NCBI RefSeq assembly: GCF_044324875.1
Contig: NZ_CP172185.1
DNA: 64,000 bases
Strand: one strand, 5' to 3'
Source of the DNA: Escherichia coli
GTDB taxonomy: Bacteria > Pseudomonadota > Gammaproteobacteria > Enterobacterales > Enterobacteriaceae
The notes under the pieces are model-generated. The model made no database searches. It was not told the origin of the DNA and saw only the letters and a list, made by a program, of their open reading frames with translations. The position numbers were made by a program, and so were the translations under genes. How positions within the stretch are numbered: the stretch's first letter is position 1; every line of letters starts with the position of its first letter. Positions 3,104-31,361 of this stretch are shown here, piece after piece.

Positions 3104-3268
3104 ATGGCAAAGCCGATCATCACGCTCAATGGCCTAAAAATCGTCATTATGTTGGGAATGCTGGTCATTATTCTCTGCGGTATCCGTTTTGCCGCCGAGA
3201 TCATCGTGCCGTTTATTCTCGCATTATTTATTGCTGTTATATATAACTTATTTCACTTAACACATTGA
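3104..3268 (+). pseudogene. tqsA: tqsA 5' fragment (first ~45 codons of the AI-2 exporter), truncated by island insertion
   Basis: Translates [46 protein letters not shown] then runs into island sequence and stops after 9 more codons. Confidence 0.8.
3232..3240. repeat. attL core, left copy of the 9-bp direct repeat TGCTGTTAT
   Basis: Identical 9-mer at 18813-18821; tqsA reading frame continues across the two copies. Confidence 0.7.
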
Positions 3269-3310
3269 TTTAATTAAATAATTTACACTACAAAAAGTGC
3301 CAAAAATCGC

Positions 3311-3375
3311 AAATTAACTACACCATTAACTACACCGTTCGGCGCACTGTATGAAACAACGTGGAACAAATAGGC
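3311..3375. promoter_or_regulatory. attL-proximal arm repeats: 2x AACTACACC (11-bp period) and 2x GAAACAA/GGAACAA (10-bp period)
   Basis: Direct repeats read from sequence; related repeats near attR; approximate coordinates. Confidence 0.5.
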
Positions 3376-3554
3376 ACAAGAAATATAAAGGCGGGTAATT
3401 TTTAGGGGGCGTTAATGTCGATATGGGGATCCACATATCGAGATTGATACCTGGCTTTTTTTCCGGTTAACCTTTAATCAGGCTGGTGGGCTTTACCTGT
3501 TCTGTAGGAGTGGTCATTATGACCATTCAGCCAATGACCTTAATCAGAATTTTT

Positions 3555-3582
3555 CGCTAAAAAATGACGTTGGCCACGTCAT
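3555..3582 (-). terminator. Rho-independent terminator at the end of the island leftward operon
   Basis: On minus strand: stem ATGACGT/ACGTCAT with 5-nt loop followed by UUUUUU; downstream of last island gene. Confidence 0.55.
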
Positions 3583-3652
3583 CCGGAAAGCACAAAATCA
3601 CGTCGATTTTTAATGGATGGTTAAACCGTCTTTATCTCGATGTCCGTACGTA

Positions 3653-3943
3653 TTACGTACGCAGTCGTTCCGGCTTCTTCCAGTGGTACGTATTTTTCGC
3701 GCTCTCCCTCCGTTGTTGAGAACGGCGACGGTATGCCAGCAACTCAAGGACTCTTGTTCGTATGTTGCGCATATCCACGCCGTTAAGCTCAATACCATCA
3801 CGGCGCATCACCTCCGCAACAACACGCACATAATTTTCGGCGGTCACGCTGTCCGGCTGCGTGGCCTGTTCGTCATGCTGCTGGCTGATTCCGGTAACGC
3901 GGCGGATTAATCCCAGTAGTTCGGCTTCGCTCATTCTCGTCAT
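3653..3943 (-). CDS. hypothetical protein, last gene of packaging operon
   Basis: 96 aa ORF; start overlaps terL stop by 4 bp (translational coupling); no recognisable motif. Confidence 0.55.
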   Translation of the reverse strand: MTRMSEAELLGLIRRVTGISQQHDEQATQPDSVTAENYVRVVAEVMRRDGIELNGVDMRNIRTRVLELLAYRRRSQQRRESAKNTYHWKKPERLRT

Positions 3944-5601
3944 ACCCCATCAAACGCCGCAAGCCGCTCTTTGTGGCTGTCGCTCATATCGAATGCAAAT
4001 TCCTCATGCTCTGCCTGGAATGTGCCAAACGCCATCAGCGCCGCAACGCTCGGGTCTATCTTGTTGGATGATTTTTTCTTGTTCGGCTTGATATTGGCGT
4101 TCGCGTCACTCTGCATCACAACATTACTCATTGACCAGGCCAGCACCGGATCACCACGATGCACAATCACCTTCCGGTTAACAAAAACTTCGAACGATTT
4201 CGCCGCCGGACTGAAACGAAGGTATGTTTGCGGGAACGGCTCCACCTCAAATCCCGCCCCCTGTAGCTGTGTTCTCAGGTGAGTGGCGTTCCATGTATCG
4301 AAGCCCACCAGCCTGATACTGAAATTCTCTGCATCCGCCATGATGTCATCACGGATACGGTCATAATCAATGCAGTCACCCGGTGTTGTGCGTATCCAGC
4401 CAGCCTTTACCCACTGGCGATAGATGGCGCGGTTTTTATTGGCGGGGTTCTGTAGCTGAAATTCCGGCAGATAGTGACGGGAAACCAGCATAATTTTTTT
4501 ACCGACCGGGAAGGCATAGCACACGCTGGAAATATCGCTGGTTGATGATAAGTCCAGCCCCGCGTAGCACTCCTGCCCGTATAAATCCGCCTCCGCGAAC
4601 GTTCCGGCGCACTCCGCCCATGCACCGTTACCCATCCACGGCGTAGCCCCCTGACACCAGATATTGAATCGCTTGGTGAGCATTTCCACCCACTGCGACG
4701 GAATACCCCGCGCTTTCTGGATGGTTGAGGCCAGTTTTTCACGATCGACGGAAACATCGATATTGGGATTCGCCTTTATCCACATCGCCGGATCGTCAAC
4801 CTCGCTTTCATCATCCAGCTCGTAAATCAGCACGAACATGGATTCGTTCACCTCTTCACCATCCAGTATCTGGCAGCAATAGTCATAGTGTTGTTTACAG
4901 GCTGAAACAACGTTGCTCCCCGATGTGGTGATGGCAAATAACAGCCCCTCCGGACGCGCCCCCATTCCCAGCTCAAGCGCGGAATAAACCCCGTTGTCAG
5001 GGTGCAGGTGATATTCATCCACAATGGCAAGACTCGGGTTTGTACCTTCAATGGTTGCCGCTTTTGCTGCCAGTGGCTTTAACAGGCTGTTGGTTTTCGC
5101 GTGTATCACCTTGTGTGCCTGAATATTTACCCGCTTTCGTAACGGTCGGGATAAAAGGCACATCTGACGCGCATCATCAAACACGATCCGCGCCTGATCA
5201 CGACTCACGGCGGCGGTGTAAATATCCTGCTGCCCGTTTTCCATAACCAGAAACCAGTTAGCCAGGATAGCGGCGACCGTGGATTTGGCATTTTTTCGCG
5301 GTACTTCAATGAATGCGCTGGTGTATTTGCGCCGTCCGGTGGCCTTAACCTTAAAGCCCAGGATGCACGCAAAGGCGAACTGCTGCCACGGCTCCAGCTC
5401 AATGGGGCTACCGCGCATTGCGCCTTTTACGTGCGGACACACCCTGGAAAAGGCAATAAACCGCTCCACGACCTCCGGATCGAACGTGTAAAGGGGGTTT
5501 TCAAGGTCAGAAAAATACCGTTTAACAGCCTGTTTCAGTCGTTTACAGGCCGTAATTTTGCCGTTTTTTACGCCTTCTGCGTACTCATGCCAGGCGGTCA
5601 A
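3940..5601 (-). CDS. terL: terminase large subunit
   Basis: 553 aa; ATPase N-terminal region and nuclease C-terminal region typical of phage TerL; adjacent to TerS and HNH. Confidence 0.85.
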   Translation of the reverse strand: MTAWHEYAEGVKNGKITACKRLKQAVKRYFSDLENPLYTFDPEVVERFIAFSRVCPHVKGAMRGSPIELEPWQQFAFACILGFKVKATGRRKYTSAFIEVPRKNAKSTVAAILANWFLVMENGQQDIYTAAVSRDQARIVFDDARQMCLLSRPLRKRVNIQAHKVIHAKTNSLLKPLAAKAATIEGTNPSLAIVDEYHLHPDNGVYSALELGMGARPEGLLFAITTSGSNVVSACKQHYDYCCQILDGEEVNESMFVLIYELDDESEVDDPAMWIKANPNIDVSVDREKLASTIQKARGIPSQWVEMLTKRFNIWCQGATPWMGNGAWAECAGTFAEADLYGQECYAGLDLSSTSDISSVCYAFPVGKKIMLVSRHYLPEFQLQNPANKNRAIYRQWVKAGWIRTTPGDCIDYDRIRDDIMADAENFSIRLVGFDTWNATHLRTQLQGAGFEVEPFPQTYLRFSPAAKSFEVFVNRKVIVHRGDPVLAWSMSNVVMQSDANANIKPNKKKSSNKIDPSVAALMAFGTFQAEHEEFAFDMSDSHKERLAAFDGV

Positions 5602-5941
5602 GCTCGTCCTCTTCCTCTGTTTCCGGTGGATTTCTGCGGCGGCTTACCGGGTCAAAACCCAGCAAAGAAGCCATTTTGATCATTATTCTTTCCGCGTCAG
5701 CCTTTGCGCTCAGGGCGGGGTTTCTGCTCTCGCTGCCCTGACTGTTAACAATGCTGAACCCGCGCGTGGCAAGGTCTTCGACGGCTTTGCGGTATATGGA
5801 GTAGTTAACGCAATACAGCTCCAGATTGCTCCAGTCGGCGGGAGTAAGGTCTTCCCGTCCGGAAAGCTGGCGCGATTTTTCCTTCCACTGCCTGACCGCG
5901 ATTTCATCCAGGTAAGCGGGGGCTTTTGGTGGTCTTGCCAT
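5585..5941 (-). CDS. terS: terminase small subunit (P27-family-like)
   Basis: ORF 5585-5986; likely start MARPPKAPAYL; small basic DNA-binding protein immediately upstream of terL with overlapping stop/start. Confidence 0.7.
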   Translation of the reverse strand: MARPPKAPAYLDEIAVRQWKEKSRQLSGREDLTPADWSNLELYCVNYSIYRKAVEDLATRGFSIVNSQGSESRNPALSAKADAERIMIKMASLLGFDPVSRRRNPPETEEEDELDRLA

Positions 5942-6064
5942 GTTCTTTTTTCGCCCAATTATTTTCAAAAAAATTCCCGTGCACAAAAATTTGAGCAGGC
6001 GGTCGGTTCTGGGCGGGGTCGGGTTCGTCCTGAAAACTCCCCCCCACCCCGTCCGGCTGCCTCA

Positions 6065-6247
6065 TCAGCGATTGCGGAAACATTCCATAACCTCGCGGTC
6101 ACGGTCGTTTAATCGCGTCGCTGTGATGCGTTCTGCGCGTCCTGATGCTTTATCTTTATGCCCTGTTTCCTGTGCCTTCCATGCGTCACGCTGCCTTATC
6201 AGTCCACGAATAAGGCTGTTTTGTTCCCGTTCATTCATCAGCGTCAT
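6065..6247 (-). CDS. small hypothetical protein between HNH and terS
   Basis: Internal start MTLMNE of ORF 6065-6481, fills the gap between HNH and terS; no similarity recognised. Confidence 0.3.
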   Translation of the reverse strand: MTLMNEREQNSLIRGLIRQRDAWKAQETGHKDKASGRAERITATRLNDRDREVMECFRNR

Positions 6248-6671
6248 ACATCCAGTTATTGCGGTTGGCTGCCCGTTCTTCCTCCTCACGGAATCCGCCA
6301 ACTGCACGCTTGTTTTTTGTGGCCGGATCAAGCCATTTCGTTTTCTGGTTATGACACGCCTGACACAATGGCTGATGATTCCACTCAGGCCAGAAGAGAA
6401 CATCATTACCGCCATCGATGGGGATAATGTGATCCACCACCACGGCGGGCGTGTATATTCCTTTTTCCAGGCAATGCGCACATAACGGGTTTTTACTCAG
6501 GTACATAGCGCGGTATTTCTCCCACTGCCTCGTATACCCTCGCTCCCTGCTGCTGCCTCTCCGGCTGTCCTGCTGCTGGCGTGCGCTGCGTCTGTGCTCC
6601 TCACACTTGCCGGACTTCACGCGCCTGTTGCAGCCTGGTTGTGTGCATCGTCTCAATGGTTGCCACGGCAT
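6231..6671 (-). CDS. HNH endonuclease (packaging-associated)
   Basis: 146 aa; Cys-rich with HNH-type His/Asn motif (DHIIPIDGGND...NHQPLCQACHNQK); directly upstream of terS as in HNH-dependent cos packaging systems. Confidence 0.8.
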   Translation of the reverse strand: MPWQPLRRCTQPGCNRRVKSGKCEEHRRSARQQQDSRRGSSRERGYTRQWEKYRAMYLSKNPLCAHCLEKGIYTPAVVVDHIIPIDGGNDVLFWPEWNHQPLCQACHNQKTKWLDPATKNKRAVGGFREEEERAANRNNWMYDADE

Positions 6672-6967
6672 CAGTACACCCCCACATCACGATAAACCGA
6701 CCAGAGCGCGGAAATCGTCAGGGGAATTTCTTTTGTATCGGTATCGCCAAGCGTTGTCCGGTACTCGTACAGTTGCGAGATGTACATCAGGCAACCAATT
6801 TTTATTGCAGGGGTAAATTCCAGGCCGTCATCAAAACGCCTGCCAATATGCTTCTGGCATACCTCCAGCGCCGCGCTTATGTATGCCTGAATCAGTGTGT
6901 CTTCTGTGTTACCATCTATGCGGCAGTGAAGTTTGGCCTCTTCCAGGGTTATTTTTTCTGCTGTCAT
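6671..6967 (-). CDS. head-tail connector protein (gp6-like)
   Basis: 98 aa; size, position and sequence pattern of phage gp6-like connector proteins. Confidence 0.6.
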   Translation of the reverse strand: MTAEKITLEEAKLHCRIDGNTEDTLIQAYISAALEVCQKHIGRRFDDGLEFTPAIKIGCLMYISQLYEYRTTLGDTDTKEIPLTISALWSVYRDVGVY

Positions 6968-7302
6968 TTTTCTGTACCCACCTTTGCCAGAATTTCCAGC
7001 CGGGTTCTTTTCGCATCAGGTAAGGGGATCCCGATGATATTAAGCGTGCTCCCGGCAAAAGCGCCGGTAAGCACTTTCAGGCGACTGGCGGCGGATATGT
7101 CGCCACGATAGCGAACCCATACCCGAATCGTTGCAGGTGCGGTTTCTGCGCCTGCGGTCAGTAATTCCCGTCCGCTGATCCCCTTGACCTCTGCCCAGAT
7201 GGTTTCCCCTTCCGTCCATATCTGCTGGATCGCACCTGACGGCAGGCGCTGTGTGGTAAATGTCATAATCGTCACCCGGTCCCGCATCTTTCCGGCTATC
7301 AT
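6964..7302 (-). CDS. head closure / head-tail adaptor protein
   Basis: 112 aa; position next to portal and connector; overlapping stop/start with neighbours. Confidence 0.55.
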   Translation of the reverse strand: MIAGKMRDRVTIMTFTTQRLPSGAIQQIWTEGETIWAEVKGISGRELLTAGAETAPATIRVWVRYRGDISAASRLKVLTGAFAGSTLNIIGIPLPDAKRTRLEILAKVGTEK

Positions 7303-8516
7303 TCGTCACCGCCCTTACTGTTCTTGCTGATTGTCACTTCCTGCTTCCATGCCTGGCTGAACTCGTCGCCACCTTCACGCGGCGGCATTCCCTCACGCTC
7401 ACGGGCTTCGTTCGGATTGATGATCCCGTTCTTAATCCCTTTCTCATACGTGGCGTAACGTTCGGTAGGGGTGGCGCGTAATAAATCGGCTGAATCAAAC
7501 TCAACCAGATAACGGGTACCAGGTACGGGAGAAGCCACCAGCAAAGCAGCCTTGATTTGCTGTTCGAAGTTCGCCAGCCACGGGCGCATTGTCATGGTCA
7601 GAAACGCGCGGCTTGCCTCACTGAAATTGCTGTAGGTGCTGTTGCTGTATTCCTGCAAAAAAATCGGCGAGACGTTGAACATTCGGGCGATGTCTTCAAT
7701 GGTAAAGCGACGGGAGGCCAGCCATTCAGCATCCTGATTACTCATGCCCAGCTGCTGATAGCTCATACCCCCTTCAAGGATGGGCGTTTTTCCGGCGTTT
7801 CTGGCCCCTTTGTAGCGTTCCAGTGCGGCTAATGCCTGTTTGCCCTTCACGCCGTCCAGCCATTCGCCTGACGTGATAACCCCTGCCGCCATCATGCCAT
7901 CACGCATCACGCTCGCGCCGTGGCGTTGTTGGGCCAGCCCAAGCCCCAGCGATTCGCGGCAGATGGTTACAGGTGAGCGCCCCATAAAGCCGTCATCCGT
8001 GGAGTAACGAAGGTGGAGAACCTCCCACGGTAAATAGTTGCGGGTGTTTCCGGTGTAGGCGTCAGTGATGCAGTAGCGCCAGTTATGCTCACCTGTCTGC
8101 TCCACGTTCACCGACTGCGGCGGGTAAGGATGTAAAGCCACCGGAAAACCATCACGCCCCCACTGAATAACCGCATAAGCATTACCGTTTAACAGGCAGT
8201 GGCGGATCATCATTCGCTTAAACTGGTAGGGGGTTTGCCATGCGTTCGGGCGCTCGTTGAGGATGTGATCGACCGGATGAGAATCAAGCCACTCGCGGGC
8301 CTCCTTCCCCTTCTCATTGCGTACCAGGTACAGGTAACACGGCATGGTAGCCACCGCCTCAGAGATGACCGTCACGGCGTTCATGACGGCGGGCAGTGAT
8401 TCCGCTGTCCCCGATGATACGTACTCACCCGCCCCCGTGTTCGATGTGCCCGCCAGCGCCATAAATTCATCAAGCGTCATGCTGCGCTGCTCTTTTTTTC
8501 TTCTGAAAAGCCACAT
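7299..8516 (-). CDS. portal protein (HK97 family)
   Basis: 405 aa; portal-like sequence; immediately followed by prohead protease. Confidence 0.8.
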   Translation of the reverse strand: MWLFRRKKEQRSMTLDEFMALAGTSNTGAGEYVSSGTAESLPAVMNAVTVISEAVATMPCYLYLVRNEKGKEAREWLDSHPVDHILNERPNAWQTPYQFKRMMIRHCLLNGNAYAVIQWGRDGFPVALHPYPPQSVNVEQTGEHNWRYCITDAYTGNTRNYLPWEVLHLRYSTDDGFMGRSPVTICRESLGLGLAQQRHGASVMRDGMMAAGVITSGEWLDGVKGKQALAALERYKGARNAGKTPILEGGMSYQQLGMSNQDAEWLASRRFTIEDIARMFNVSPIFLQEYSNSTYSNFSEASRAFLTMTMRPWLANFEQQIKAALLVASPVPGTRYLVEFDSADLLRATPTERYATYEKGIKNGIINPNEAREREGMPPREGGDEFSQAWKQEVTISKNSKGGDE

Positions 8517-8517
8517 A

Positions 8518-9090
8518 TCACACCCCCGCTAAATCCACCCACCAGCGGCGATTATCCGCACGCGGCATTTTTTCGGGGTGCTGCTCATACAGGGAACGGC
8601 GGGCCAGCTCCACGCCAGAATCGGGGTAAGCCGGTACCGATGTAACGGTAATTTCGTACAGTTCCGCCACCAGCACGGTACGAACGCATGGATCTGTTGT
8701 GGTATCCCATACATCCTTACGGGAGCGAAAGCCAAAGCTCATGCCGGATATATCACCGCGTTTAACCAGTTCGATAACGTCGCGCCCTGTACTGGTATCC
8801 GGTGGGGTCAGTTCAAAGCGTAACCCTGTTTCGTCCTCTTCCAGTTTCAGCGTGCCGGAACGGGTGCGCCCCAGTAACATGCTGTGGTCATGCTCATACA
8901 GGCCGCGAACGTCATTACCCGCCGCAAGCCATTCAGTAAACGCCCCCCGCTGGAATTTTTCGTAAAACTCACCCCATAACAGTTCTGAAAGCTTATCCCA
9001 GCGAACAACGTAGCCCGTCAGCGTACCGGCTCCGCTCGTGGTGATTTCCGATGACCGGATTTCCATACTCTTCATAATTTTTTCACCCAT
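8518..9090 (-). CDS. prohead protease (HK97 family, S78-like)
   Basis: 190 aa; typical HK97 prohead protease N-terminal pattern; between capsid and portal genes. Confidence 0.8.
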   Translation of the reverse strand: MGEKIMKSMEIRSSEITTSGAGTLTGYVVRWDKLSELLWGEFYEKFQRGAFTEWLAAGNDVRGLYEHDHSMLLGRTRSGTLKLEEDETGLRFELTPPDTSTGRDVIELVKRGDISGMSFGFRSRKDVWDTTTDPCVRTVLVAELYEITVTSVPAYPDSGVELARRSLYEQHPEKMPRADNRRWWVDLAGV

Positions 9091-9129
9091 AAAACACTAA
9101 AGGGGCTTTTAAGCCCCTTCTGTATGCTG

Positions 9130-16268: not shown

Positions 16269-16316
16269 TCACTATCAGCGCCGTGGTGTGAGGTACTGCG
16301 GCGCATTGTTTTAAAG

Positions 16317-16517
16317 GTGATAATTATGAATAACCAGGAACTACAAAATAAAGCATTATCAATTATCATGCGCCAGCGTGAGAAAACCCGCAGGGAAATA
16401 AATAAGGCATTAACCCGCACTGAAAATCTTAAAGTTCCTGATAAGTTCGCCCTTGATCCTTTTGTCGAGAAATACCCTCGGCGCTTAAAAGCAAACAAAA
16501 ACCGCCCACCTGGCTGA
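16317..16517 (+). CDS. hypothetical small basic protein
   Basis: 66 aa ORF downstream of RHH gene; followed by two terminators. Confidence 0.45.
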   Translation: MIIMNNQELQNKALSIIMRQREKTRREINKALTRTENLKVPDKFALDPFVEKYPRRLKANKNRPPG

Positions 16518-16550
16518 CAATCCACCAGCAAGCCAGGACACTGATCACAT

Positions 16551-16579
16551 TGGCCACCGTGACAGGTGGCCTTTTCTTT
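16551..16579 (+). terminator. Rho-independent terminator
   Basis: GGCCACC..GGTGGCC stem followed by TTTTCTTT. Confidence 0.55.
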
Positions 16580-16675
16580 GCCCGTTATCCGGCAATTGTG
16601 GCGCTTCGTCACCTGGCTGATATAATTCCACTGCTTATATTCATTTTTTGCGCAGTAGGTTAATTGTTCAGAAAG

Positions 16676-16704
16676 GCGGCTCCTTATCGGGGCCGCTTTT
16701 TTTA
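16676..16704 (+). terminator. Rho-independent terminator
   Basis: GGCGGCTCC..GGGGCCGC stem followed by T7. Confidence 0.55.
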
Positions 16705-16844
16705 TGCCTGAAAAACCGCGATTTTGTTGTTTTTCAGTTTCACCAGGCCGAACGAAGCCCCGCCCCTGTTCGGGCGTATATCCAGTCTTCATGGTTAAAT
16801 CTCTGTATTAGTGGATGGGTGGCGGCTGTGTGCCGCCAGTCTTT

Positions 16845-17033
16845 TTAGTGAACTGCCTCGCAGCTTTCCTTCCATGCCAGAACTTCGGATAAAGACCAGC
16901 CAACGGAACGACCGCCCAGCTTACGCCGTGATGGGAATTGTCCGGCCTTTTCCAGGCGGTAGCGGCATGAGCGGCTAAGTCCTGTTAGCTTTTCGCATTC
17001 TTTTTCACGTATAAACCGATCAGTACTTAACAC
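16845..17033 (-). CDS. alpA: AlpA-family phage regulatory protein (transcriptional activator / excision factor-like)
   Basis: 62 aa; helix-turn-helix pattern matching remembered AlpA proteins of P4-like islands; adjacent to integrase. Confidence 0.85.
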   Translation of the reverse strand: MLSTDRFIREKECEKLTGLSRSCRYRLEKAGQFPSRRKLGGRSVGWSLSEVLAWKESCEAVH

Positions 17034-17193
17034 TATTGCCCCCTTTCGTTTCTTAAAGAGTTATTTCGTGTTCTATTGCGTTGGTATGTGTCTGATTGTG
17101 TCAGGGTGATTCAGAGTTGGCAAATGTTGGTGGCGGGTATTTTACAGAAACGGGGTAATTTTAATAAAAAACATTTTAATTCAGTATTATGCA

Positions 17194-17226
17194 AAGGCAT
17201 AAAATCTCGTTTTATGCCTTTTTTCT
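17194..17226 (+). terminator. Orphan hairpin plus T-run between int and alpA
   Basis: AAGGCATAAAA..TTTTATGCCTT stem followed by TTTTTT on + strand; no + strand gene upstream. Confidence 0.35.
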
Positions 17227-17315
17227 CACTATTTAAAGCGTTATTCGCTAATGTATAAAAAACCAGTTGAGCATTAAAAATCAGCAACTTATAAGTCTGT
17301 ATACTTTTTCGCCTC

Positions 17316-17360
17316 TTGTTCGTGGTTGTTCCACGTTGTTTCACATTGTTCGCCGTTGTA
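17316..17360. repeat. Four tandem 10-bp GAACAA-type repeats (minus-strand orientation) between int and alpA
   Basis: Reverse complement reads GCGAACAATG TGAAACAACG TGGAACAACC ACGAACAAG. Confidence 0.6.
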
Positions 17361-17407
17361 TCTGTGTGCTTATCCAGTATGCGCATACTGAAAAAACACG
17401 AAAAAAA

Positions 17408-18637
17408 TTATTTTCTTCTGGCTACTGGTAGCGTGGTTACGTTTTCATGTGCTCCCGCCAGTATCTCCAACCGCTCCACCCACATATCCAGCGCATTGCG
17501 TTTCGCATCCAGATAACGGGAATGATTATAAACTCGCTGCATTCCTGGCATCTGGTGGCCTGTAAGCTGCTCCACGACATGCGGATCAACGCCTAAATCG
17601 TTCAGCATGGTTGTAAAGGTGCGCCGGATGTCATGCAGTGACCAGTGAGGGTGTTTAAGCCTCCTGTGCGCTAATCTTCCATACTGCGATACGCTGGCCT
17701 CCTGTTTCACTTCCCCCAGCAATAAGCCCGTGTGCCTGTTCTGCTCCACCAGCTGCGTGACGAACGGCAGTATCGCTTCCGGTATGGGCCGGAATATGGC
17801 TACCTTCGTTTTGCTGTGCTCCTTCGGAACGGTCCATAGCATTTCGGTAAAATCCCACTCCCCGATCTCCGATAGCCTCAGTTCTACTGTCCTGGCTCCG
17901 AAGACAATCAGGAGGCGGATTAGTGCGACGTAGTAAGGGGAAAATATTTTTTTATCCAGCGCCTGCAATAACTCGCCCAGTTCTTTGGTGCTTAAGACAC
18001 GTTCGCTTATATCCGGTTTTTTCCCAACGTCCGCCACGTTCAGATCGTCCAGAACGTTGCTGATTGCATAGCGCCGCCTACGGCAAAACTTAAGCGCCTG
18101 TTTGCACGCCTGTAGCACGAATCCGGCAGTAACAGGCGTTCGCTTTGCCACCTGGTCAAAACAGGCCAGCCAGTGCCGTAGCTCGCATTTATCCAGCGGC
18201 ATAGCACCAATGTGCTGTATTACGTGATTATTAACTCGCCTTTTCAGGGCGATATAATCCACGCGGTTTTCCTTTACGTAAGACTCAAGCCAGTAGGTGA
18301 GCGCATCGCCAACCGTTACCGGCTTTAACGCTTCCTGTACGGCGTAATTCATCTCATGGCGTGGATTTTTCCCCTCCGCCAGCCATGCGCGACACTGGGC
18401 GGCTTTTTCCCTGGCTGCTTTCAGGCTCAGATCAGGATAATTTCCCAGCTTAATACGTTCCGGTCGTGTCTCTCTTCCCGTTCCTGCCCTGTAAGTGAAA
18501 TACCAGGTTAATATCCCTGATGTTAAATATTTCACGCTCAGATTTCCGCCATCGCTATAAAACGTGTTTTTCTCCGCTGGCTTACCATGAAGTTTCCTTA
18601 GCAAGGTATCGCTCAGTTTGTTCATTGCTCTGCTCAC
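17408..18637 (-). CDS. int: tyrosine integrase, P4 type
   Basis: 409 aa; N-terminal arm-binding domain pattern and C-terminal catalytic region (HDIRRT...Y); terminal position next to attR. Confidence 0.9.
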   Translation of the reverse strand: MSRAMNKLSDTLLRKLHGKPAEKNTFYSDGGNLSVKYLTSGILTWYFTYRAGTGRETRPERIKLGNYPDLSLKAAREKAAQCRAWLAEGKNPRHEMNYAVQEALKPVTVGDALTYWLESYVKENRVDYIALKRRVNNHVIQHIGAMPLDKCELRHWLACFDQVAKRTPVTAGFVLQACKQALKFCRRRRYAISNVLDDLNVADVGKKPDISERVLSTKELGELLQALDKKIFSPYYVALIRLLIVFGARTVELRLSEIGEWDFTEMLWTVPKEHSKTKVAIFRPIPEAILPFVTQLVEQNRHTGLLLGEVKQEASVSQYGRLAHRRLKHPHWSLHDIRRTFTTMLNDLGVDPHVVEQLTGHQMPGMQRVYNHSRYLDAKRNALDMWVERLEILAGAHENVTTLPVARRK

Positions 18638-18661
18638 GCTTTACCCCTTGTTTACGAAAAA

Positions 18662-18790
18662 GTGACTACACCAGTGACTACACCGATCGTTGCACAAAGG
18701 GCTACAACGTGAAACAAGCTGGAACAAGAAAAATCACAAATTTGTTTATAATCAAAAACATAATGAACAAACTGAAACATTATGAAACGG
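18662..18790. promoter_or_regulatory. attR-proximal arm repeats and int promoter region: 2x GTGACTACACC, then GAAACAA/GGAACAA and TGAACAAAC/TGAAAC repeats
   Basis: Direct repeats read from sequence immediately upstream of int and inside attR arm. Confidence 0.5.
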
Positions 18791-18812
18791 CAAAAAACAC
18801 TAATTGATAAAA

Positions 18813-18821
18813 TGCTGTTAT
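18813..18821. repeat. attR core, right copy of TGCTGTTAT
   Basis: Identical to 3232-3240; tqsA sequence resumes. Confidence 0.7.
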
Positions 18822-19719
18822 TCTTAACCCGCTGGTGCAACACATGGTCCGCTGGCGTGTGCCGCGTGTACTGGCAGTGTCGATTTTGATGACCATCATC
18901 GTGATGGCGATGGTGTTGCTATTAGCTTATCTGGGTTCCGCGCTCAACGAGTTGACGCGGACGTTACCGCAATATCGCAACTCTATTATGACGCCGCTGC
19001 AAGCGATTGAACCGTTGTTGCAACGCGTAGGGATTGATGTCTCAGTTGACCAACTGGCGCATTACATTGATCCGAACGCGGCGATGACGTTGCTCACCAA
19101 CTTATTGACGCAGTTATCTAATGCCATGTCATCAATATTTTTATTGCTGCTGACGGTGCTGTTTATGCTGCTCGAAGTGCCACAATTGCCCGGAAAATTT
19201 CAGCAAATGATGGCGCGTCCGGTTGAAGGGATGGCGGCGATTCAGCGTGCGATTGACAGTGTTTCTCATTATCTGGTGCTGAAAACAGCCATCAGCATCA
19301 TCACCGGCCTGGTCGCCTGGGCGATGCTCGCCGCACTCGATGTTCGCTTCGCTTTTGTCTGGGGATTGCTGGCCTTTGCGCTTAATTACATCCCGAATAT
19401 TGGTTCAGTTCTCGCGGCAATCCCCCCTATCGCTCAGGTATTGGTGTTTAATGGCTTCTACGAAGCGTTGCTGGTGCTGGCGGGATATCTGCTGATTAAT
19501 CTGGTCTTCGGCAATATTCTGGAGCCACGCATCATGGGGCGTGGGCTGGGGCTTTCCACGTTGGTGGTATTTCTGTCGTTGATTTTTTGGGGATGGTTGT
19601 TAGGACCGGTGGGTATGCTGCTTTCCGTGCCGTTGACAATTATTGTCAAAATTGCGCTTGAACAAACAGCGGGAGGTCAAAGCATCGCCGTTCTGTTAAG
19701 CGATCTCAATAAAGAGTGA
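18813..19719 (+). pseudogene. tqsA: tqsA 3' portion (AI-2 exporter lacking its first ~45 codons)
   Basis: Sequence continues [13 protein letters not shown]...; in-frame stops (TGA TAA) immediately upstream in island DNA; ORF track 18835-19719. Confidence 0.8.
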
Positions 19720-19742
19720 CGGCCTCCGCAGAGGCCGTCAGG
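19717..19742. terminator. Bidirectional terminator between tqsA and pntB
   Basis: GACGGCCTC..GAGGCCGTC hairpin between convergent genes. Confidence 0.5.
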
Positions 19743-19743
19743 G

Positions 19744-21135
<1,392 letters not shown>

Positions 21136-21142
21136 TTACCCC

Positions 21143-22738
<1,596 letters not shown>

Positions 22739-23198
22739 TCATGTACGAGCTAAATGTTACTCCGTTAAAATAAATTAGTAACAAACGCCCTATAACGTAC
22801 TGAAAATTATGCCTGTGATCTAGCGCCAAAAATCAGTATTTCGGCGTGAACTCGCAAAATATTAACGATTCAGCCGTGATAGTGGGATAAACACCTTAGA
22901 ACGCCGGATAAAGACTGATAATTGTCTTCGACGGTCGGGTAAAACGTGATATCGCCCCGGCACGAATCACTACTTAACATTAAATTAACTTATACAATTC
23001 AGTTGTTTCAGTAGTATTGATGCTGATACGGCTGTTTTTTAAGCATAGACGGTCATTTGAGCAGGATTAAAATTGGCTTAAGGAATGTGATATGAAAAAT
23101 GACGCAGACAGTTACACCGTTTAAATGCAATAATCAGCCACGTTTCTCGTTAATAACAATACCAGTACCTGGTTTGCGCAAGGCGAAGGATTATTTTT

Positions 23199-24143
23199 AT
23201 GAAGCTTAAGAACACCCTCCTGGCGTCGGCACTGCTTTCTGCTACGGCATTCTCCGTTAACGCAGCAACAGAACTGACACCGGAGCAAGCGGCAGCGGTT
23301 AAACCTTTTGACCGTGTAGTGGTTACCGGTCGTTTTAATGCTATTGGCGAAGCGGTGAAAGCCGTTTCTCGTCGCGCAGATAAAGAAGGTGCCGCCTCTT
23401 TTTATGTTGTCGACACTTCTGATTTTGGTAACAGCGGTAACTGGCGTGTGGTCGCTGACCTCTATAAAGCCGATGCTGAAAAAGCAGAAGAAACAAGTAA
23501 TCGCGTAATTAACGGTGTTGTCGAACTGCCGAAAGATCAGGCTGTTCTGATTGAACCGTTTGACACGGTCACCGTCCAGGGCTTTTATCGTAGCCAGCCA
23601 GAAGTCAATGATGCCATCACCAAAGCGGCAAAAGCGAAAGGTGCCTACTCTTTCTACATCGTTCGTCAAATCGATGCCAACCAGGGCGGCAACCAGCGTA
23701 TTACTGCATTCATCTATAAAAAAGATGCTAAGAAACGTATCGTCCAGAGCCCGGATGTGATCCCGGCAGATTCCGAAGCAGGACGTGCAGCTCTGGCTGC
23801 CGGTGGCGAAGCCGCGAAGAAAGTTGAGATCCCGGGTGTTGCGACTACCGCATCACCAAGTTCTGAAGTCGGTCGCTTCTTTGAAACCCAGTCATCAAAA
23901 GGCGGGCGTTACACCGTCACGCTCCCGGATGGCACTAAAGTCGAAGAACTGAACAAAGCGACCGCAGCGATGATGGTCCCGTTCGACAGCATCAAATTCT
24001 CTGGCAACTACGGCAACATGACCGAAGTCTCCTATCAGGTTGCGAAACGTGCCGCGAAGAAAGGTGCTAAGTATTACCACATCACCCGCCAGTGGCAGGA
24101 ACGTGGTAATAACCTGACCGTCAGCGCAGATCTGTATAAATAA
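23199..24143 (+). CDS. ydgH: DUF1471 family periplasmic protein YdgH
   Basis: 314 aa; signal peptide; three internal repeats. Confidence 0.85.
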   Translation: MKLKNTLLASALLSATAFSVNAATELTPEQAAAVKPFDRVVVTGRFNAIGEAVKAVSRRADKEGAASFYVVDTSDFGNSGNWRVVADLYKADAEKAEETSNRVINGVVELPKDQAVLIEPFDTVTVQGFYRSQPEVNDAITKAAKAKGAYSFYIVRQIDANQGGNQRITAFIYKKDAKKRIVQSPDVIPADSEAGRAALAAGGEAAKKVEIPGVATTASPSSEVGRFFETQSSKGGRYTVTLPDGTKVEELNKATAAMMVPFDSIKFSGNYGNMTEVSYQVAKRAAKKGAKYYHITRQWQERGNNLTVSADLYK

Positions 24144-24328
24144 CTATTCAGTTACTCCTATAAGGCGGCTTGATGCCGCCTTTCGCATTTTTAGTCACAA
24201 ATTTCCCCGCGACCATTGCATGCAGACACATCTCTTCGTAAAATCCCGCGCTTCAGTGGCAAACTCCATTTTTATGCGTTTTGCCCTAATATTTATTCTT
24301 CTTATCACGTTTTAATCACTGGATATCG

Positions 24329-25711
24329 ATGGAAAAGAAACTGGGACTGAGCGCACTCACCGCGCTGGTATTAAGCTCAATGCTGGGCGCGGGTGTTTTC
24401 AGTCTGCCGCAAAATATGGCGGCAGTTGCCAGCCCGGCAGCACTGCTCATCGGCTGGGGTATTACTGGCGCAGGCATTTTATTGCTGGCCTTTGCCATGC
24501 TGATCCTCACGCGCATTCGTCCCGAACTTGACGGCGGTATCTTTACCTATGCCCGCGAAGGGTTTGGCGAGCTAATCGGCTTTTGTTCCGCATGGGGATA
24601 CTGGCTGTGCGCGGTCATCGCCAACGTCTCCTATCTGGTGATCGTTTTTTCCGCGTTAAGCTTTTTTACGGACACGCCGGAATTGCGCCTGTTTGGCGAT
24701 GGTAATACCTGGCAATCGATCGTCGGTGCATCGGCTTTATTGTGGATTGTTCACTTTTTGATCCTGCGCGGGGTGCAAACCGCTGCCAGCATTAACCTGG
24801 TGGCGACACTGGCAAAATTGTTGCCGCTGGGTCTGTTTGTTGTGCTGGCGATGATGATGTTCAAACTGGATACCTTCAAGCTCGACTTCACCGGACTTGC
24901 ACTTGGCGTACCCGTTTGGGAACAGGTGAAAAACACCATGCTGATCACCCTGTGGGTTTTCATTGGTGTGGAAGGTGCCGTGGTTGTTTCTGCGCGTGCG
25001 CGTAATAAACGTGATGTTGGCAAAGCGACACTGCTGGCGGTTCTCTCCGCTCTGGGCGTTTACTTGCTGGTAACGCTGCTTTCGCTGGGCGTGGTGGCAC
25101 GTCCTGAACTGGCTGAAATTCGTAACCCGTCAATGGCCGGTCTGATGGTGGAAATGATGGGACCATGGGGCGAAATCATCATCGCTGCCGGTTTGATCGT
25201 TTCCGTTTGCGGCGCGTACTTAAGCTGGACCATCATGGCGGCAGAAGTTCCGTTCCTGGCAGCCACTCATAAAGCATTCCCGCGCATTTTTGCGCGCCAG
25301 AACGCACAAGCTGCGCCATCCGCTTCACTGTGGCTGACCAATATCTGCGTGCAAATTTGTCTGGTACTCATCTGGCTGACCGGTTCCGATTACAACACAT
25401 TGCTGACCATCGCCTCAGAGATGATTCTGGTGCCCTATTTCCTGGTCGGCGCGTTCTTGCTGAAAATCGCAACCCGTCCACTGCATAAAGCGGTAGGTAT
25501 CGGTGCCTGCATTTATGGCTTATGGTTATTGTACGCCTCTGGTCCAATGCACTTGCTGTTATCCGTTGTTCTGTATGCGCCGGGGCTGCTGGTTTTCCTG
25601 TATGCGCGTAAAACGCATACACATGATAATGTACTGAACCGTCAGGAAATGGTGCTGATTGGCATGCTGTTAATTGCCTCAGTTCCGGCGACCTGGATGC
25701 TGGTGGGATAA
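24329..25711 (+). CDS. ydgI: putative arginine:ornithine antiporter (APC family) YdgI
   Basis: 460 aa polytopic membrane transporter. Confidence 0.85.
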   Translation: MEKKLGLSALTALVLSSMLGAGVFSLPQNMAAVASPAALLIGWGITGAGILLLAFAMLILTRIRPELDGGIFTYAREGFGELIGFCSAWGYWLCAVIANVSYLVIVFSALSFFTDTPELRLFGDGNTWQSIVGASALLWIVHFLILRGVQTAASINLVATLAKLLPLGLFVVLAMMMFKLDTFKLDFTGLALGVPVWEQVKNTMLITLWVFIGVEGAVVVSARARNKRDVGKATLLAVLSALGVYLLVTLLSLGVVARPELAEIRNPSMAGLMVEMMGPWGEIIIAAGLIVSVCGAYLSWTIMAAEVPFLAATHKAFPRIFARQNAQAAPSASLWLTNICVQICLVLIWLTGSDYNTLLTIASEMILVPYFLVGAFLLKIATRPLHKAVGIGACIYGLWLLYASGPMHLLLSVVLYAPGLLVFLYARKTHTHDNVLNRQEMVLIGMLLIASVPATWMLVG

Positions 25712-25747
25712 CGTTCATCCCATCGTTGGATAGCAAAGGAGATAACG

Positions 25748-26470
25748 ATGGGTAAAACCCAGCCCTTGCCAATATTAATTACTGGCGGAGGTCGTCGCAT
25801 CGGCCTCGCACTCGCCTGGCATTTCATTAATCAAAAGCAACCGGTGATTGTCAGCTATCGGACGCACTATCCAGCCATTGATGGACTAATTAAGGCAGGT
25901 GCGCAGTGTATTCAGGCTGATTTTTCGACCAACGACGGTGTGATGGCGTTTGCCGATGAAGTACTAAAAAGTACCCATGGTCTGCGTGCTATTTTGCATA
26001 ACGCCAGCGCGTGGATGGCGGAAAAACCGGGTGCGCCACTGTCCGACGTACTGGCTTGCATGATGCAGATCCACGTTAATACCCCATACCTGCTCAACCA
26101 TGCGCTAGAAAGATTACTGCGTGGGCACGGACACGCCTCCAGCGATATCATTCACTTTACCGATTATGTGGTGGAGCGCGGTAGCGACAAACATATTGCC
26201 TATGCTGCAAGCAAAGCGGCACTGGATAATATGACTCGCTCGTTTGCCCGCAAGCTGGCACCGGAAGTGAAAGTGAATTCTATTGCGCCATCGCTGATCC
26301 TGTTTAATGAACATGATGATGCCGAATATCGACAACAGGCGCTGAATAAATCACTGATGAAAACCGCGCCTGGCGAGAAAGAAGTGATCGACCTGGTCGA
26401 TTACTTACTTACCAGCTGCTTTGTCACCGGACGCAGTTTCCCTCTTGATGGCGGTCGTCATCTGCGTTAA
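25748..26470 (+). CDS. folM: dihydromonapterin reductase (SDR family)
   Basis: 240 aa SDR with TGGGRRIG nucleotide-binding motif. Confidence 0.85.
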   Translation: MGKTQPLPILITGGGRRIGLALAWHFINQKQPVIVSYRTHYPAIDGLIKAGAQCIQADFSTNDGVMAFADEVLKSTHGLRAILHNASAWMAEKPGAPLSDVLACMMQIHVNTPYLLNHALERLLRGHGHASSDIIHFTDYVVERGSDKHIAYAASKAALDNMTRSFARKLAPEVKVNSIAPSLILFNEHDDAEYRQQALNKSLMKTAPGEKEVIDLVDYLLTSCFVTGRSFPLDGGRHLR

Positions 26471-26802
26471 TGCAGCTTTATCCAGCATATAATCAACACC
26501 CATGCGCTTATCCCCCAACACGCAACAGAACCAACAAAAGCGGCGGGCAAGCGCATCATTCCGGTGAAATACCACAGCGACGCCAGGTAAACAAAATAGG
26601 GAATAATCGACCACATGCTAAAAATGATGGTTGCGCGTAAGGCTTCAATGCCGCGTTCGCTGGCAACAATATAATGCGCGATGAGCGCAAAGGTCGGGAA
26701 AAGTGGGATCAGCCCGGCGATATAATAATTTTTCGTTTTTGCTAAAACACCAATCAACAGCACTACCAGCGCACCGAGCGCGGCTTTGATTACCAGCCCC
26801 AT
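26467..26802 (-). CDS. ydgC: GlpM-family inner membrane protein YdgC
   Basis: 111 aa hydrophobic protein. Confidence 0.8.
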   Translation of the reverse strand: MGLVIKAALGALVVLLIGVLAKTKNYYIAGLIPLFPTFALIAHYIVASERGIEALRATIIFSMWSIIPYFVYLASLWYFTGMMRLPAAFVGSVACWGISAWVLIICWIKLH

Positions 26803-26930
26803 CTTTTTACCTTAACACTTCCATAACAAGTCATCAGTAGAATACCTGATGAAAACTTGTTTAGAAACGATTGATAGTAAGTAAAAACAGCGCGGTGTAT
26901 TGTGACGTTTTTATATCTACCGTGAATAAT

Positions 26931-27650
26931 ATGAACACTATCGTATTTGTGGAAGATGATGCGGAAGTCGGTTCACTGATTGCCGCGTACCTGGCAAAAC
27001 ATGATATGCAGGTTACCGTAGAGCCGCGCGGCGACCAGGCCGAAGAAACTATTCTGCGAGAAAATCCGGATTTGGTGTTACTCGACATCATGCTACCAGG
27101 CAAGGACGGCATGACCATTTGTCGTGATTTACGCGCAAAGTGGTCCGGACCAATTGTTCTTCTAACCTCTCTCGATAGCGATATGAACCACATCCTGGCA
27201 CTGGAAATGGGAGCCTGCGACTATATTCTCAAAACGACGCCCCCTGCTGTTTTGTTAGCGCGTTTACGTTTGCATTTGCGTCAGAATGAGCAAGCCACAC
27301 TGAGCAAAGGTCTTCAGGAAACGTCTCTGACTCCCTACAAAGCCCTGCATTTCGGCACGTTGACCATCGATCCTATCAACCGCGTAGTCACCCTGGCTAA
27401 CACTGAAATCTCGCTCTCGACAGCTGATTTCGAATTATTGTGGGAATTAGCTACCCATGCCGGGCAAATCATGGACCGCGATGCATTGCTGAAAAATTTA
27501 CGTGGCGTCAGTTATGACGGACTGGATCGTAGCGTGGACGTGGCTATTTCGCGGTTAAGAAAAAAACTGCTCGATAACGCCGCAGAACCTTATCGCATTA
27601 AAACTGTGCGTAACAAAGGCTATCTTTTTGCGCCTCATGCATGGGAATAA
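26931..27650 (+). CDS. rstA: two-component response regulator RstA (OmpR family)
   Basis: ORF 26871-27650; start set at MNTIVFVEDD; receiver plus winged-helix domains. Confidence 0.9.
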   Translation: MNTIVFVEDDAEVGSLIAAYLAKHDMQVTVEPRGDQAEETILRENPDLVLLDIMLPGKDGMTICRDLRAKWSGPIVLLTSLDSDMNHILALEMGACDYILKTTPPAVLLARLRLHLRQNEQATLSKGLQETSLTPYKALHFGTLTIDPINRVVTLANTEISLSTADFELLWELATHAGQIMDRDALLKNLRGVSYDGLDRSVDVAISRLRKKLLDNAAEPYRIKTVRNKGYLFAPHAWE

Positions 27651-27653
27651 GCG

Positions 27654-31361
<3,708 letters not shown>

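Follow-up and report, generated by a model that had tools for sequence, protein, structure and literature searches.

The 64,000-nucleotide stretch of Escherichia coli DNA analyzed here (contig NZ_CP172185.1; hereafter the window) carries a 15,572 bp insert within tqsA, the gene for the autoinducer-2 (AI-2) exporter. With a probability of roughly 85%, this is a capsid-forming PICI (phage-inducible chromosomal island; cf-PICI) whose own tyrosine integrase put it into a dedicated site at codons 43–46, an event that split the gene and most likely left the cell tqsA null, as the tolerated side effect of an integrase that had changed target. Recombination between attP and attB would have taken place within the nine bases common to both, and this core now flanks the island. 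Because attP holds no tqsA-like sequence, the gene is split into two pieces: a 54-codon stub with helix H1, half of H2 and eight foreign residues, and a promoterless, start-less 3′ part behind two stops. While the island is resident, the cell would most likely be tqsA null, and precise excision through the same nine bases would rebuild the gene. The insertion is real but ordinary, the site and the breakage of the gene being already known, and current understanding is unchanged.

The start codon of tqsA lies at 3104–3106, and the coding sequence is interrupted past 3240 and picked up again at 18813/18814 (Table 1). The open frame of the 5′ fragment comprises residues 1–46, followed by eight island-coded residues (YNLFHLTH) and a stop at 3266–3268. 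The 9-bp repeat found at both island edges covers codons 43–46 (nt 129–137); elsewhere in the window it has only two further copies, at 25554 (+) and 56264 (−), and the chance of nine identical bases at a given junction pair is about 4e-6. On the left side, the core and the first island bases form a 12-bp palindrome, GTTATATATAAC (3236–3247). Excision in silico through the 9-bp core rebuilt an intact tqsA: with the insert and one repeat copy removed, 3104–3240 joined to 18822–19719 gave 1,035 nt (344 codons), whose product was identical to PDB 7NB6 at 343 of 344 residues, L108I being the sole change. Compared with an intact gene of the K-12 type, in which the 9-mer occurred exactly once, the rebuilt gene had 12 nucleotide differences, and when the left junction was searched by megablast against 5,426 complete E. 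coli genomes, the alignment to empty-site genomes ended exactly at 3240. This alignment to intact tqsA, which had been proposed for locating the crossover, and the reconstruction of the gene bear out the original prediction that an integrase-bearing satellite lies inside tqsA and not in a tRNA gene, that the gene is split at about codon 45, from 3240 to 18813, and that nine bases are duplicated at the two junctions. A chance repeat or an assembly artefact was ruled out by identical junctions in hundreds of genomes.

Table 1. Features of the tqsA locus and its island, with positions in the window.
Feature	Position	Strand	Basis or remark
tqsA 5′ fragment	3104..3240	+	codons 1–45 and two bases of codon 46; RefSeq pseudogene 'missing C-terminus' in carriers
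attL core TGCTGTTAT	3232..3240	+	same core in five full carrier loci
Predicted capsid-forming PICI island, 15,572 bp	3241..18812	.	sequence between cores and ORF matches
Presumed arm-type integrase sites, left arm, two tandem copies of TTAACTACACC	3314..3336	+	conserved in phoQ-roxA type attP; binding presumed
Large terminase subunit	3940..5601	-	phrog_9, E=3.5e-180
Small terminase subunit	5585..5986	-	phrog_83, E=6.6e-39
HNH endonuclease, packaging module	6231..6671	-	phrog_144, E=4.2e-43
Head-tail adaptor	6671..6967	-	phrog_40, E=1.5e-33
Head closure / connector protein	6964..7302	-	phrog_25, E=1.5e-29
Portal protein	7299..8516	-	phrog_12, E=1.7e-118
HK97-type prohead protease	8518..9090	-	phrog_80, E=1.9e-67
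Major capsid protein	9130..10332	-	phrog_10, E=8.8e-88
PerC-family transcriptional activator	11406..11807	-	phrog_994 and phrog_10396; RefSeq annotation of relatives
Single-stranded DNA-binding protein	11698..12108	-	phrog_44, E=4.1e-41
Replication protein, RepA-family helicase type	12873..14279	-	phrog_2850, E=1.7e-185; RefSeq annotation of relatives
AlpA-like regulator / excisionase	16845..17033	-	phrog_2790, E=1.3e-17
Tyrosine integrase, 409 aa, GTG start, P4-family layout	17408..18637	-	Arm-DNA-bind_3 and Phage_integrase
Presumed arm-type integrase sites, right arm, two tandem copies of GTGACTACACC	18662..18684	+	binding presumed
Two consecutive stops TGA TAA, tqsA frame	18805..18810	+	directly upstream of 3′ fragment
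attR core TGCTGTTAT	18813..18821	+	same core in five full carrier loci
tqsA 3′ fragment	18814..19719	+	codons 44–344 and stop 19717–19719; RefSeq pseudogene 'missing N-terminus' in carriers

As had also been predicted, the island supplies no substitute N-terminus: in-frame stops (TGA 18805–18807, TAA 18808–18810) immediately precede the 3′ portion, and no tqsA-like replacement fragment was found in attP. A 60-aa RefSeq 'hypothetical protein' between int and the 3′ portion (about 18625–18807) was considered as a replacement N-terminus and rejected, as TGA TAA separates it from tqsA. This ORF is in the tqsA frame, is not hydrophobic, and runs in antisense across the start of int and the arm sites. 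No second tqsA copy was found within the window, and the 3′ part of the gene was essentially single-copy in E. coli (5,427 places in 5,422 genomes). By likeness to these other genomes, the rest of this genome probably also lacks the second intact copy that had been named as evidence against the prediction.

Judging from its gene content, the insert is a complete cf-PICI. As a member of this class, it would respond to a helper phage and be packaged into capsids of its own making, to which helper tails are attached. Its length between cores falls within the size criterion of about 10–18 kb (bioRxiv 10.1101/2025.02.11.637232), and all 11 core parts of the class, i.e., integrase, AlpA regulator, primase/replicase, capsid, protease, portal, head-tail adaptor, head-tail connector, HNH, TerS and TerL (PMC10085698), were matched in PHROGs with E-values of 1e-17 to 1e-185. 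The scan comprised 20 island ORFs, and among these 20 there were no matches to tail or holin/lysis families and no assignment to Sid, Psu or Delta; the remaining ORFs were short and lay in the int-proximal regulatory region, with no space for a tail module. A P4-like satellite was ruled out, since genes for capsid, protease, portal and terminases are all present on the island. The P4-type label given earlier thus suits the integrase, which has the P4-family domain layout, but not the island itself. From the annotation of relatives, the starts of the small terminase (357 bp in relatives) and of the major capsid protein (1,158 bp) are probably internal to the ORFs listed in Table 1, and the PerC-family match begins at residue 41 of its ORF. 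A 157-aa accessory ORF on the plus strand had no match in PADLOC or PHROGs.

The integrase combined PF13356 (residues 8–95, E=3.7e-17) with PF00589 (residues 214–375, E=6.6e-16), and its relatives at about 55% identity included ones named CP4-57. The usual habit of the P4 family, which is not a strict criterion, is to enter a tRNA or tmRNA gene at its 3′ end, which attP restores; here, the target was codons 43–46 of tqsA, none of which is restored. A core of 9 bp had been thought short for a P4-type integrase, yet it is not anomalous, because in the sister lineage at phoQ-roxA the core measures 10 bp, and short cores are thus typical of this lineage. In the P4 family, long cores serve to restore tRNA 3′ ends, and the tqsA site needs no such rebuilding. 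The match between attP and attB resumes three bases after the 9 bp with TAAC, so that 13 of 16 positions agree. The tandem repeats in the two arms would function as arm-type sites.

A metagenome contig (L017; CYGL01000683.1, 11,271 bp) was a circular permutation of a tqsA-type island without chromosomal flank and carried the predicted attP junction; therefore, tqsA-type islands probably excise, although this contig could come from tandem islands instead of a free circle, and the repaired attB that would go with it was not seen in that population. In metagenomes, a shorter, ambiguous pattern yielded 11 attR junctions and one attP junction, while a longer, too strict attP pattern gave no match; the attP pattern also had no match in IMG/VR viral contigs.

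The int-tqsA junction was recurrent among the 5,426 complete E. coli genomes, with attL in 224 and attR in 246 (about 4.5%). Five full tqsA loci had an identical core and integrases 96.8–99.5% identical to that of the window, and their islands ranged from 11.7 to 15.6 kb, with differing replication modules and cargo. The tqsA-dedicated integrases formed a subclade with identities of at least 94–97%, whose members adjoin pntAB, i.e., tqsA. When one representative genome per species was searched with an exact attR pattern (degenerate tqsA codons), there were no matches, a result that is uninformative at that sampling. The site is already published (Flockhart 2012, PMC3378721; Bobay 2013, PMC3603311; Mageeney 2020, PMC7192596). 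As described there, the TIGER islands Eco282.16.tqsA, Eco557.15.tqsA and Eco33.11.tqsA (Mageeney et al. 2020) likewise target tqsA, with the UPF0118 / AI-2E domain broken without restoration. The same target is used by the element that Flockhart et al. (2012) place between ydgD and ydgG in ED1a; the published size classes, about 15–16 kb and about 11 kb, agree with the present ones. Compared by description and not by sequence, these islands showed no difference in kind from the present one, and the passages concerned in Mageeney 2020 and Flockhart 2012 present them without a cf-PICI label, core or sister-site relationship.

When whole islands were compared, the nearest relatives (96.5% identity, with 93% of the island aligned) were located at phoQ-roxA. 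Integrases about 90% identical to that of the window use the phoQ stop codon / roxA spacer, and 543 genomes have this site occupied. Integrated at the stop codon of phoQ and breaking no gene, these islands are harmless. Further integrase relatives, at 84% and 76% identity, were found at two further loci. The close relationship of the islands, together with the suggestion of Bobay et al. (PMC3603311) that sparsely occupied sites inside genes are secondary ones, would fit an integrase that targets phoQ-roxA and occasionally lands in tqsA by accident. Such off-target integration has next to no probability, being contradicted by a distinct integrase clade and a distinct attP core. The tqsA-site integrases formed a subclade of their own, set apart by 23 fixed differences from the two integrases of phoQ type in the comparison, and while both attP arms were identical in the two types, the roughly 30-bp central cassette differed and here matched tqsA, not phoQ; the tqsA and phoQ attB sequences are unlike each other. 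In addition, exactly the same junction occurred in 246 genomes, and NZ_AP027256.1 has a tqsA island plus a related island 0.5 Mb away.

TqsA function, and with it AI-2 export, would be lost in carriers. Helix H1 (residues 7–29) is the main cytoplasmic pentamer contact of TqsA and H2 spans residues 31–57 (PMC9475539); the split takes H1 away from the 3′ part and cuts H2. Both pieces are annotated as pseudogenes by RefSeq in carriers, one of which has an extra nonsense codon, S298*. The window, like 12 of the 13 carriers sampled, had an otherwise undamaged 3′ fragment, which would follow from a recent insertion but also from selection that still acts on it. The paralogues of TqsA in E. coli are YhhT, YdiK and PerM, and AI-2 is still a 'probable substrate' (PMC9475539).

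The 3′ fragment has no start codon of its own, its earliest in-frame candidates being GTG 18835 (V51) and ATG 18844 (M54). It is highly improbable that an N-terminally truncated TqsA, made from V51 or M54 by read-through or from an outward promoter in the right arm, still exports. The frame from 18835 to 19719 is open, the 3′ fragment is intact in most carriers, a perfect, outward-facing −10 hexamer (TATAAT) lies in the right arm at 18747–18752, and a weak GGTG stands 6 nt upstream of ATG 18844, so some truncated product may be made. However, the hexamer has no usable −35, the GGTG/ATG pair merely belongs to the native coding sequence, int, which is the closest island gene to the junction, points away from tqsA, and one carrier has the premature stop at codon 298. 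The product would also be devoid of H1, the main pentamer contact, and of most of H2 (PMC9475539). A consensus scan, crude enough for weak promoters to escape it, found no sigma-70-type promoter at either junction, including 18300–19000, which leads up to and into the 3′ part. By the same kind of crude scan there was no terminator-like site at the left junction; of two such sites close to the right junction, one is a weak stem within tqsA coding sequence and the other is on the opposite strand.

Mageeney et al. 2020 (PMC7192596) put tqsA forward as a "regulated gene integrity" candidate and propose a regulated switch for the tqsA clade. Under regulated gene integrity, or active lysogeny, the island would hold tqsA off and regulated excision would restore it in survivors, an adaptive and reversible arrangement benefiting host or satellite. 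Two criteria of this concept describe what is seen here, i.e., a conserved domain broken without restoration, as in the TIGER domain-disruption table, and several independent insertions at a single position by a tight integrase clade (246 genomes; differing islands, same core), as reported in PMC7192596. Excision would moreover be precise, the attP form exists, and the window and nearly all sampled carriers retain an intact 3′ fragment. Such a switch is nonetheless unlikely. The further nonsense mutation in one carrier lineage is expected of a dead gene, and sister integrase subclades occupy other loci, the one examined being harmless, so that the tqsA target looks like one outcome of frequent retargeting and not a special adaptation. 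PICI induction is described as helper-phage driven and occurs in cells that afterwards lyse, and tqsA restored only in lysing cells would benefit no survivor. The gene-splitting target is limited to one integrase subclade while others use other sites; therefore, the broken gene is best seen as the tolerated side effect of integrase retargeting and not as a designed switch, and the insertion itself may be close to neutral.

It is quite improbable that the satellite profits from the shut-off of the exporter, with intracellular AI-2 and lsr up, emitted signal down, and host biofilm/motility or helper-prophage induction altered, and with excision restoring tqsA as a satellite-run quorum-sensing switch. 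Deletion of tqsA is reported to give more intracellular AI-2, lsr expression, biofilm and motility (Herzberg 2006, as cited in PMC9475539). If function is indeed lost, carriers, many of which are Shiga-toxin-producing and animal-associated, would be natural tqsA mutants, and carrier status would matter when strains are compared for quorum-sensing phenotypes. Possibly of greater use are the tqsA-type and phoQ-type elements as a clean natural pair for the study of tyrosine integrase retargeting: their attP arms are identical, the roughly 30-bp core cassette is swapped, and 23 amino-acid differences are fixed between the two integrase groups compared.

Classical cases of regulated gene integrity, among them the Listeria comK prophage, the mlrA prophage and the sigK skin element, resemble this island in that an integrase splits a conserved coding sequence that is left unrepaired and that precise excision would rebuild (PMC7192596). 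For those elements excision was shown to be physiologically regulated and function-restoring, whereas PICIs are described as helper-phage induced. With P4, the island has in common the Arm-DNA-bind_3 and catalytic domains of the integrase, an AlpA-type regulator, an Icd-like gene and, presumably, helper dependence. P4 integrates at tRNA-Leu via a ∼20 bp core that rebuilds the tRNA, and has no capsid, portal or terminase genes, P2 capsids being remodelled by Sid and Psu. This island, in contrast, has a complete HK97-type module for head formation and packaging, and its target is a coding sequence. Its gene order and content are those of EcCIEDL933 (CP-933C / O-island 51 / Sp7) of E. coli O157:H7, the prototype capsid-forming PICI, with int, alpA, Icd-like, DUF4222, rep, SSB, PerC-like, capsid, protease, portal, closure, adaptor, HNH, TerS and TerL in the same order. 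An O157:H7 element (L002), taken to be EcCIEDL933 from its position and the description in PMC3378721 and not from comparison with the EDL933 sequence, was about 89% identical to the island over 80%, with an integrase also of 409 aa (91% identical) and identical attP arms. EcCIEDL933 differs in lying in the phoQ stop codon / roxA (ycfD) spacer, where no gene is broken, and in its 10-bp core, AAATATGTCC instead of TGCTGTTAT, within the swapped central attP cassette.

The tqsA gene was found to be split exactly where the original prediction had placed the island, being intact up to position 3240 and continuing from 18813/18814. The predicted 9-bp duplication was present at both junctions as TGCTGTTAT, corresponding to tqsA codons 43–46, with just two further copies in the 64 kb. 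A 9-bp match between one given pair of junctions would arise by chance with a probability of ~4e-6, and beyond these 9 bp the only likeness between attP and attB was TAAC, three bases further on. Joining 3104–3240 to 18822–19719 gave a 1,035-nt frame of 344 codons, the product of which was identical to TqsA of PDB entry 7NB6 at 343 of 344 residues. Alignment with an intact K-12-type gene, suggested as a check on the crossover, revealed 12 nucleotide differences from the rebuilt gene and exactly one copy of the 9-mer, and genomes with an empty site matched the left-junction query only as far as 3240. The in-frame stops noted just upstream of the 3' part were TGA and TAA, the two tqsA-frame codons directly preceding it. 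A perfect 12-bp palindrome, GTTATATATAAC, was also observed at the attL junction, where the empty attB reads GTTAttctTAAC; it may reflect core-type integrase binding sites.

Features of the tqsA locus and its island (window positions)
Feature	Position	Strand	Remark
tqsA 5' part	3104-3240		ATG start at 3104; normal reading to 3240
attL core	3232-3240		9-bp repeat
attL palindrome	3236-3247		12 bp
157-aa ORF	10603-11076	+	between capsid and PerC-like genes
Long ORF	15247-15831		probably an artefact
Icd-like gene	15250-15408	-	cell-division-inhibitor-like
Extra bases relative to L003	15282-15702		~420 bases
Long ORF	15707-16792		probably an artefact
Icd-like gene	15710-15904	-	cell-division-inhibitor-like
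int-proximal segment	15972-16521	+	apparent variable slot
Tyrosine integrase (int)	17408-18637	-	409 aa; N-terminal Arm-DNA-bind_3 and Phage_integrase catalytic domain
int start codon	18635-18637	-	
60-aa hypothetical protein	~18625-18807	+	probably spurious
TATAAT	18747-18752		
TGA TAA	18805-18810		
attR core	18813-18821		9-bp repeat
tqsA 3' part	18813/18814-19719		coding resumes at 18813/18814
ATG in tqsA 3' part	18844		
Further 9-mer copy	25554	+	
Further 9-mer copy	56264	-	
AlpA-type regulator		-	
RepA-family replication helicase		-	
SSB		-	
PerC-family activator		-	
HK97-type major capsid protein		-	
Prohead protease		-	
Portal		-	
Head-closure protein		-	
Head-tail adaptor		-	
HNH endonuclease		-	
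Terminase, both subunits		-	

The 5' stub codes for residues 1–46 followed by eight foreign residues, while the 3' part is without a start codon, its first in-frame candidates being GTG at V51 and ATG at M54. According to cryo-EM, the pentamer's main cytoplasmic contact is made by H1 (residues 7–29) of its five protomers, and H2 (residues 31–57) is a long, horizontal, membrane-embedded helix (PMC9475539); the insertion would remove H1 and cut H2. This loss, together with the RefSeq annotation of both tqsA pieces as pseudogenes in all carriers examined, supports the predicted inactivation of TqsA. No second tqsA copy occurred within the window, and the 3' part was essentially single-copy in E. 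coli (5,427 places in 5,422 genomes), which argues against an intact copy elsewhere. The int gene adjoins the junction and is transcribed away from tqsA. A consensus scan of 18300–19000, upstream of and into the 3' part, found no promoter; the region holds a single TATAAT, and GGTG lies 6 nt ahead of the ATG at 18844, which may allow trace expression of the 3' part. RefSeq consistently calls a 60-aa hypothetical protein in carriers; this ORF is antisense to the int start and arm repeats, lies in the frame of the tqsA 3' part and closes with TGA TAA at the junction.

In E. coli CUVET21-H2, another carrier, the 3' fragment (34557–35462) had an additional nonsense codon, S298*; it was otherwise intact in the other 12 sampled carriers. 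This codon suggests decay of the tqsA pseudogene in at least one lineage. Deletion of tqsA is described as raising intracellular AI-2, inducing lsr and increasing biofilm and motility, and carriers would be expected to show a similar phenotype; E. coli has three tqsA paralogues, and AI-2 is still a "probable" substrate (PMC9475539). Insertion in tqsA could also serve as a regulated switch. Mageeney et al. (2020) proposed tqsA as a newly recognised candidate for regulated gene integrity, and the same account shows domain disruption without restoration in tqsA islands (PMC7192596). The switch reading was unsupported here and is considered improbable.

The repeats are separated by 15,572 bp, and the identified island genes all lie on the minus strand, with no match to tail or lysis functions among those scanned. 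All 11 components that define phage-inducible chromosomal islands of the capsid-forming type (cf-PICIs) were present and the size fits the defining range (PMC10085698; bioRxiv 10.1101/2025.02.11.637232), so that on gene content the island is a complete cf-PICI. The label "P4-type" therefore holds for the integrase only, and not for the island. Helper phages in the published cf-PICI work were lambdoid, of the HK106 type. The int start codon was GTG in the tqsA-type integrases examined (the window and E. coli Ch1) and ATG in those of the phoQ-roxA type. The 157-aa ORF is the sole plus-strand gene in the structural and replication block, had no PHROG or PADLOC match, and occurs also in the closest whole-island relative, L003 (WP_112047269.1); its role may be that of cargo or an accessory gene. 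Compared with the single Icd-like gene of L003, one of the two window copies was 97% identical and the other 50%, the second copy being held in the extra bases; the long ORFs that overlap these short genes are probably artefactual. The int-proximal segment differs from its counterpart in L003, where a HicB-family antitoxin gene is found.

A survey of 5,426 complete E. coli genomes found the left junction spanned in 224 and the right in 246, an occupancy of about 4.5%. When four fully fetched carrier loci were compared with the window, the 9-bp core was identical at both ends in all five, and the carrier integrases were 96.8–99.5% identical to the window's. The islands nevertheless ranged from 11.7 to 15.6 kb, carried one of two replication modules (RepA helicase or primase), and in the shortest case lacked portal and terminase genes; a single int-attP module therefore bears independent cargoes. 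Searched in a large protein collection, all integrases with 94% or more identity to the window's were labelled E. coli, and one adjoins pntAB, which places it at tqsA. The 11.7-kb island of Ch1 (18302–29958) carries a different cargo on the same module, with genes for a major capsid protein, head-decoration protein and head-tail connector and none for portal or terminase, so two kinds of satellite use the site. E. coli JNE141411 (NZ_AP027256.1) has a tqsA-site junction and a second related cf-PICI ~0.5 Mb away (about 1.257–1.274 Mb and 1.777 Mb), indicating that co-residence is possible.

The closest whole-island relatives lie outside tqsA, between phoQ and roxA; strain LH50-c matches 93% of the island at 96.5% identity, and O157:H7 matches at about 89%. 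The core at this site, AAATATGTCC, overlaps the phoQ stop codon, so no gene is broken there, and the site was occupied in 543 genomes. A 9-bp core had been thought short for a P4-type integrase; a core of 9–10 bp proved normal in this lineage. The phoQ-roxA integrases were 89.5–91% identical to the window's, with 23 fixed differences between five tqsA-type and two phoQ-type sequences (16 in the arm-binding domain, five in the core-binding domain at residues 129, 133, 174, 199 and 200, and two in the catalytic domain). Comparison of attP (window 18640–18821 and 3232–3400; L003 2973–3150 and 18164–18344) revealed essentially identical arms, including tandem ACTACACC repeats taken to be putative arm sites, and a difference only in a ~30-bp central cassette, GCTGTTATATATAACTTATTTCACTTAACAC versus ATGTCCTTTTATCACCGATATTAGTTAATAT. 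The tqsA specificity is a variant derived from the phoQ-roxA element, from which it differs by a swapped core cassette, and the two types form a clean natural pair for studies of integrase retargeting. Further subclades lie beside a LysR regulator with M20 peptidase genes (84% integrase identity) and beside cspD/macB (76%), and the lineage therefore switches target often. Among these four sites, the latter two placed by neighbourhood rather than exact junction, tqsA appears to be the only gene-splitting target.

Metagenome contigs scanned with a pattern fitting both attR and attP yielded 11 junctions of integrated islands and a single attP junction, the latter at 8757–8779 of CYGL01000683.1 (11,271 bp). 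This contig corresponds to a circularly permuted island, ~92% identical to that of Ch1, with the right end joined to the left through a single core copy and no chromosomal flank, and so represents the excised element or a concatemer, or at the least islands in tandem. The attP form therefore occurs in nature, and the single-core junction locates the crossover within the 9 bp.

The split of tqsA is thus confirmed and its interpretation supported, and the finding itself is already known. Flockhart et al. (2012) describe a relative of CP-933C in ED1a between ydgD and ydgG (tqsA), with CP-933C lying between ycfD and phoQ (PMC3378721). In Bobay et al. (2013), tqsA is one of the listed core genes that prophage integration has disrupted (PMC3603311), and Mageeney et al. 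(2020) report precise mapping of Eco282.16.tqsA, Eco557.15.tqsA and Eco33.11.tqsA (PMC7192596). Alqurainy et al. report six attB sites for E. coli cf-PICIs, four of which classical PICIs also use (bioRxiv 10.1101/2022.09.08.507074). Against this background the additions are modest: the completeness of the window's cf-PICI, the frequency of site occupancy, a short core typical of the lineage, the origin of tqsA specificity from the phoQ-roxA element, the natural attP form, and signs of further tqsA decay in one or more carrier lineages.
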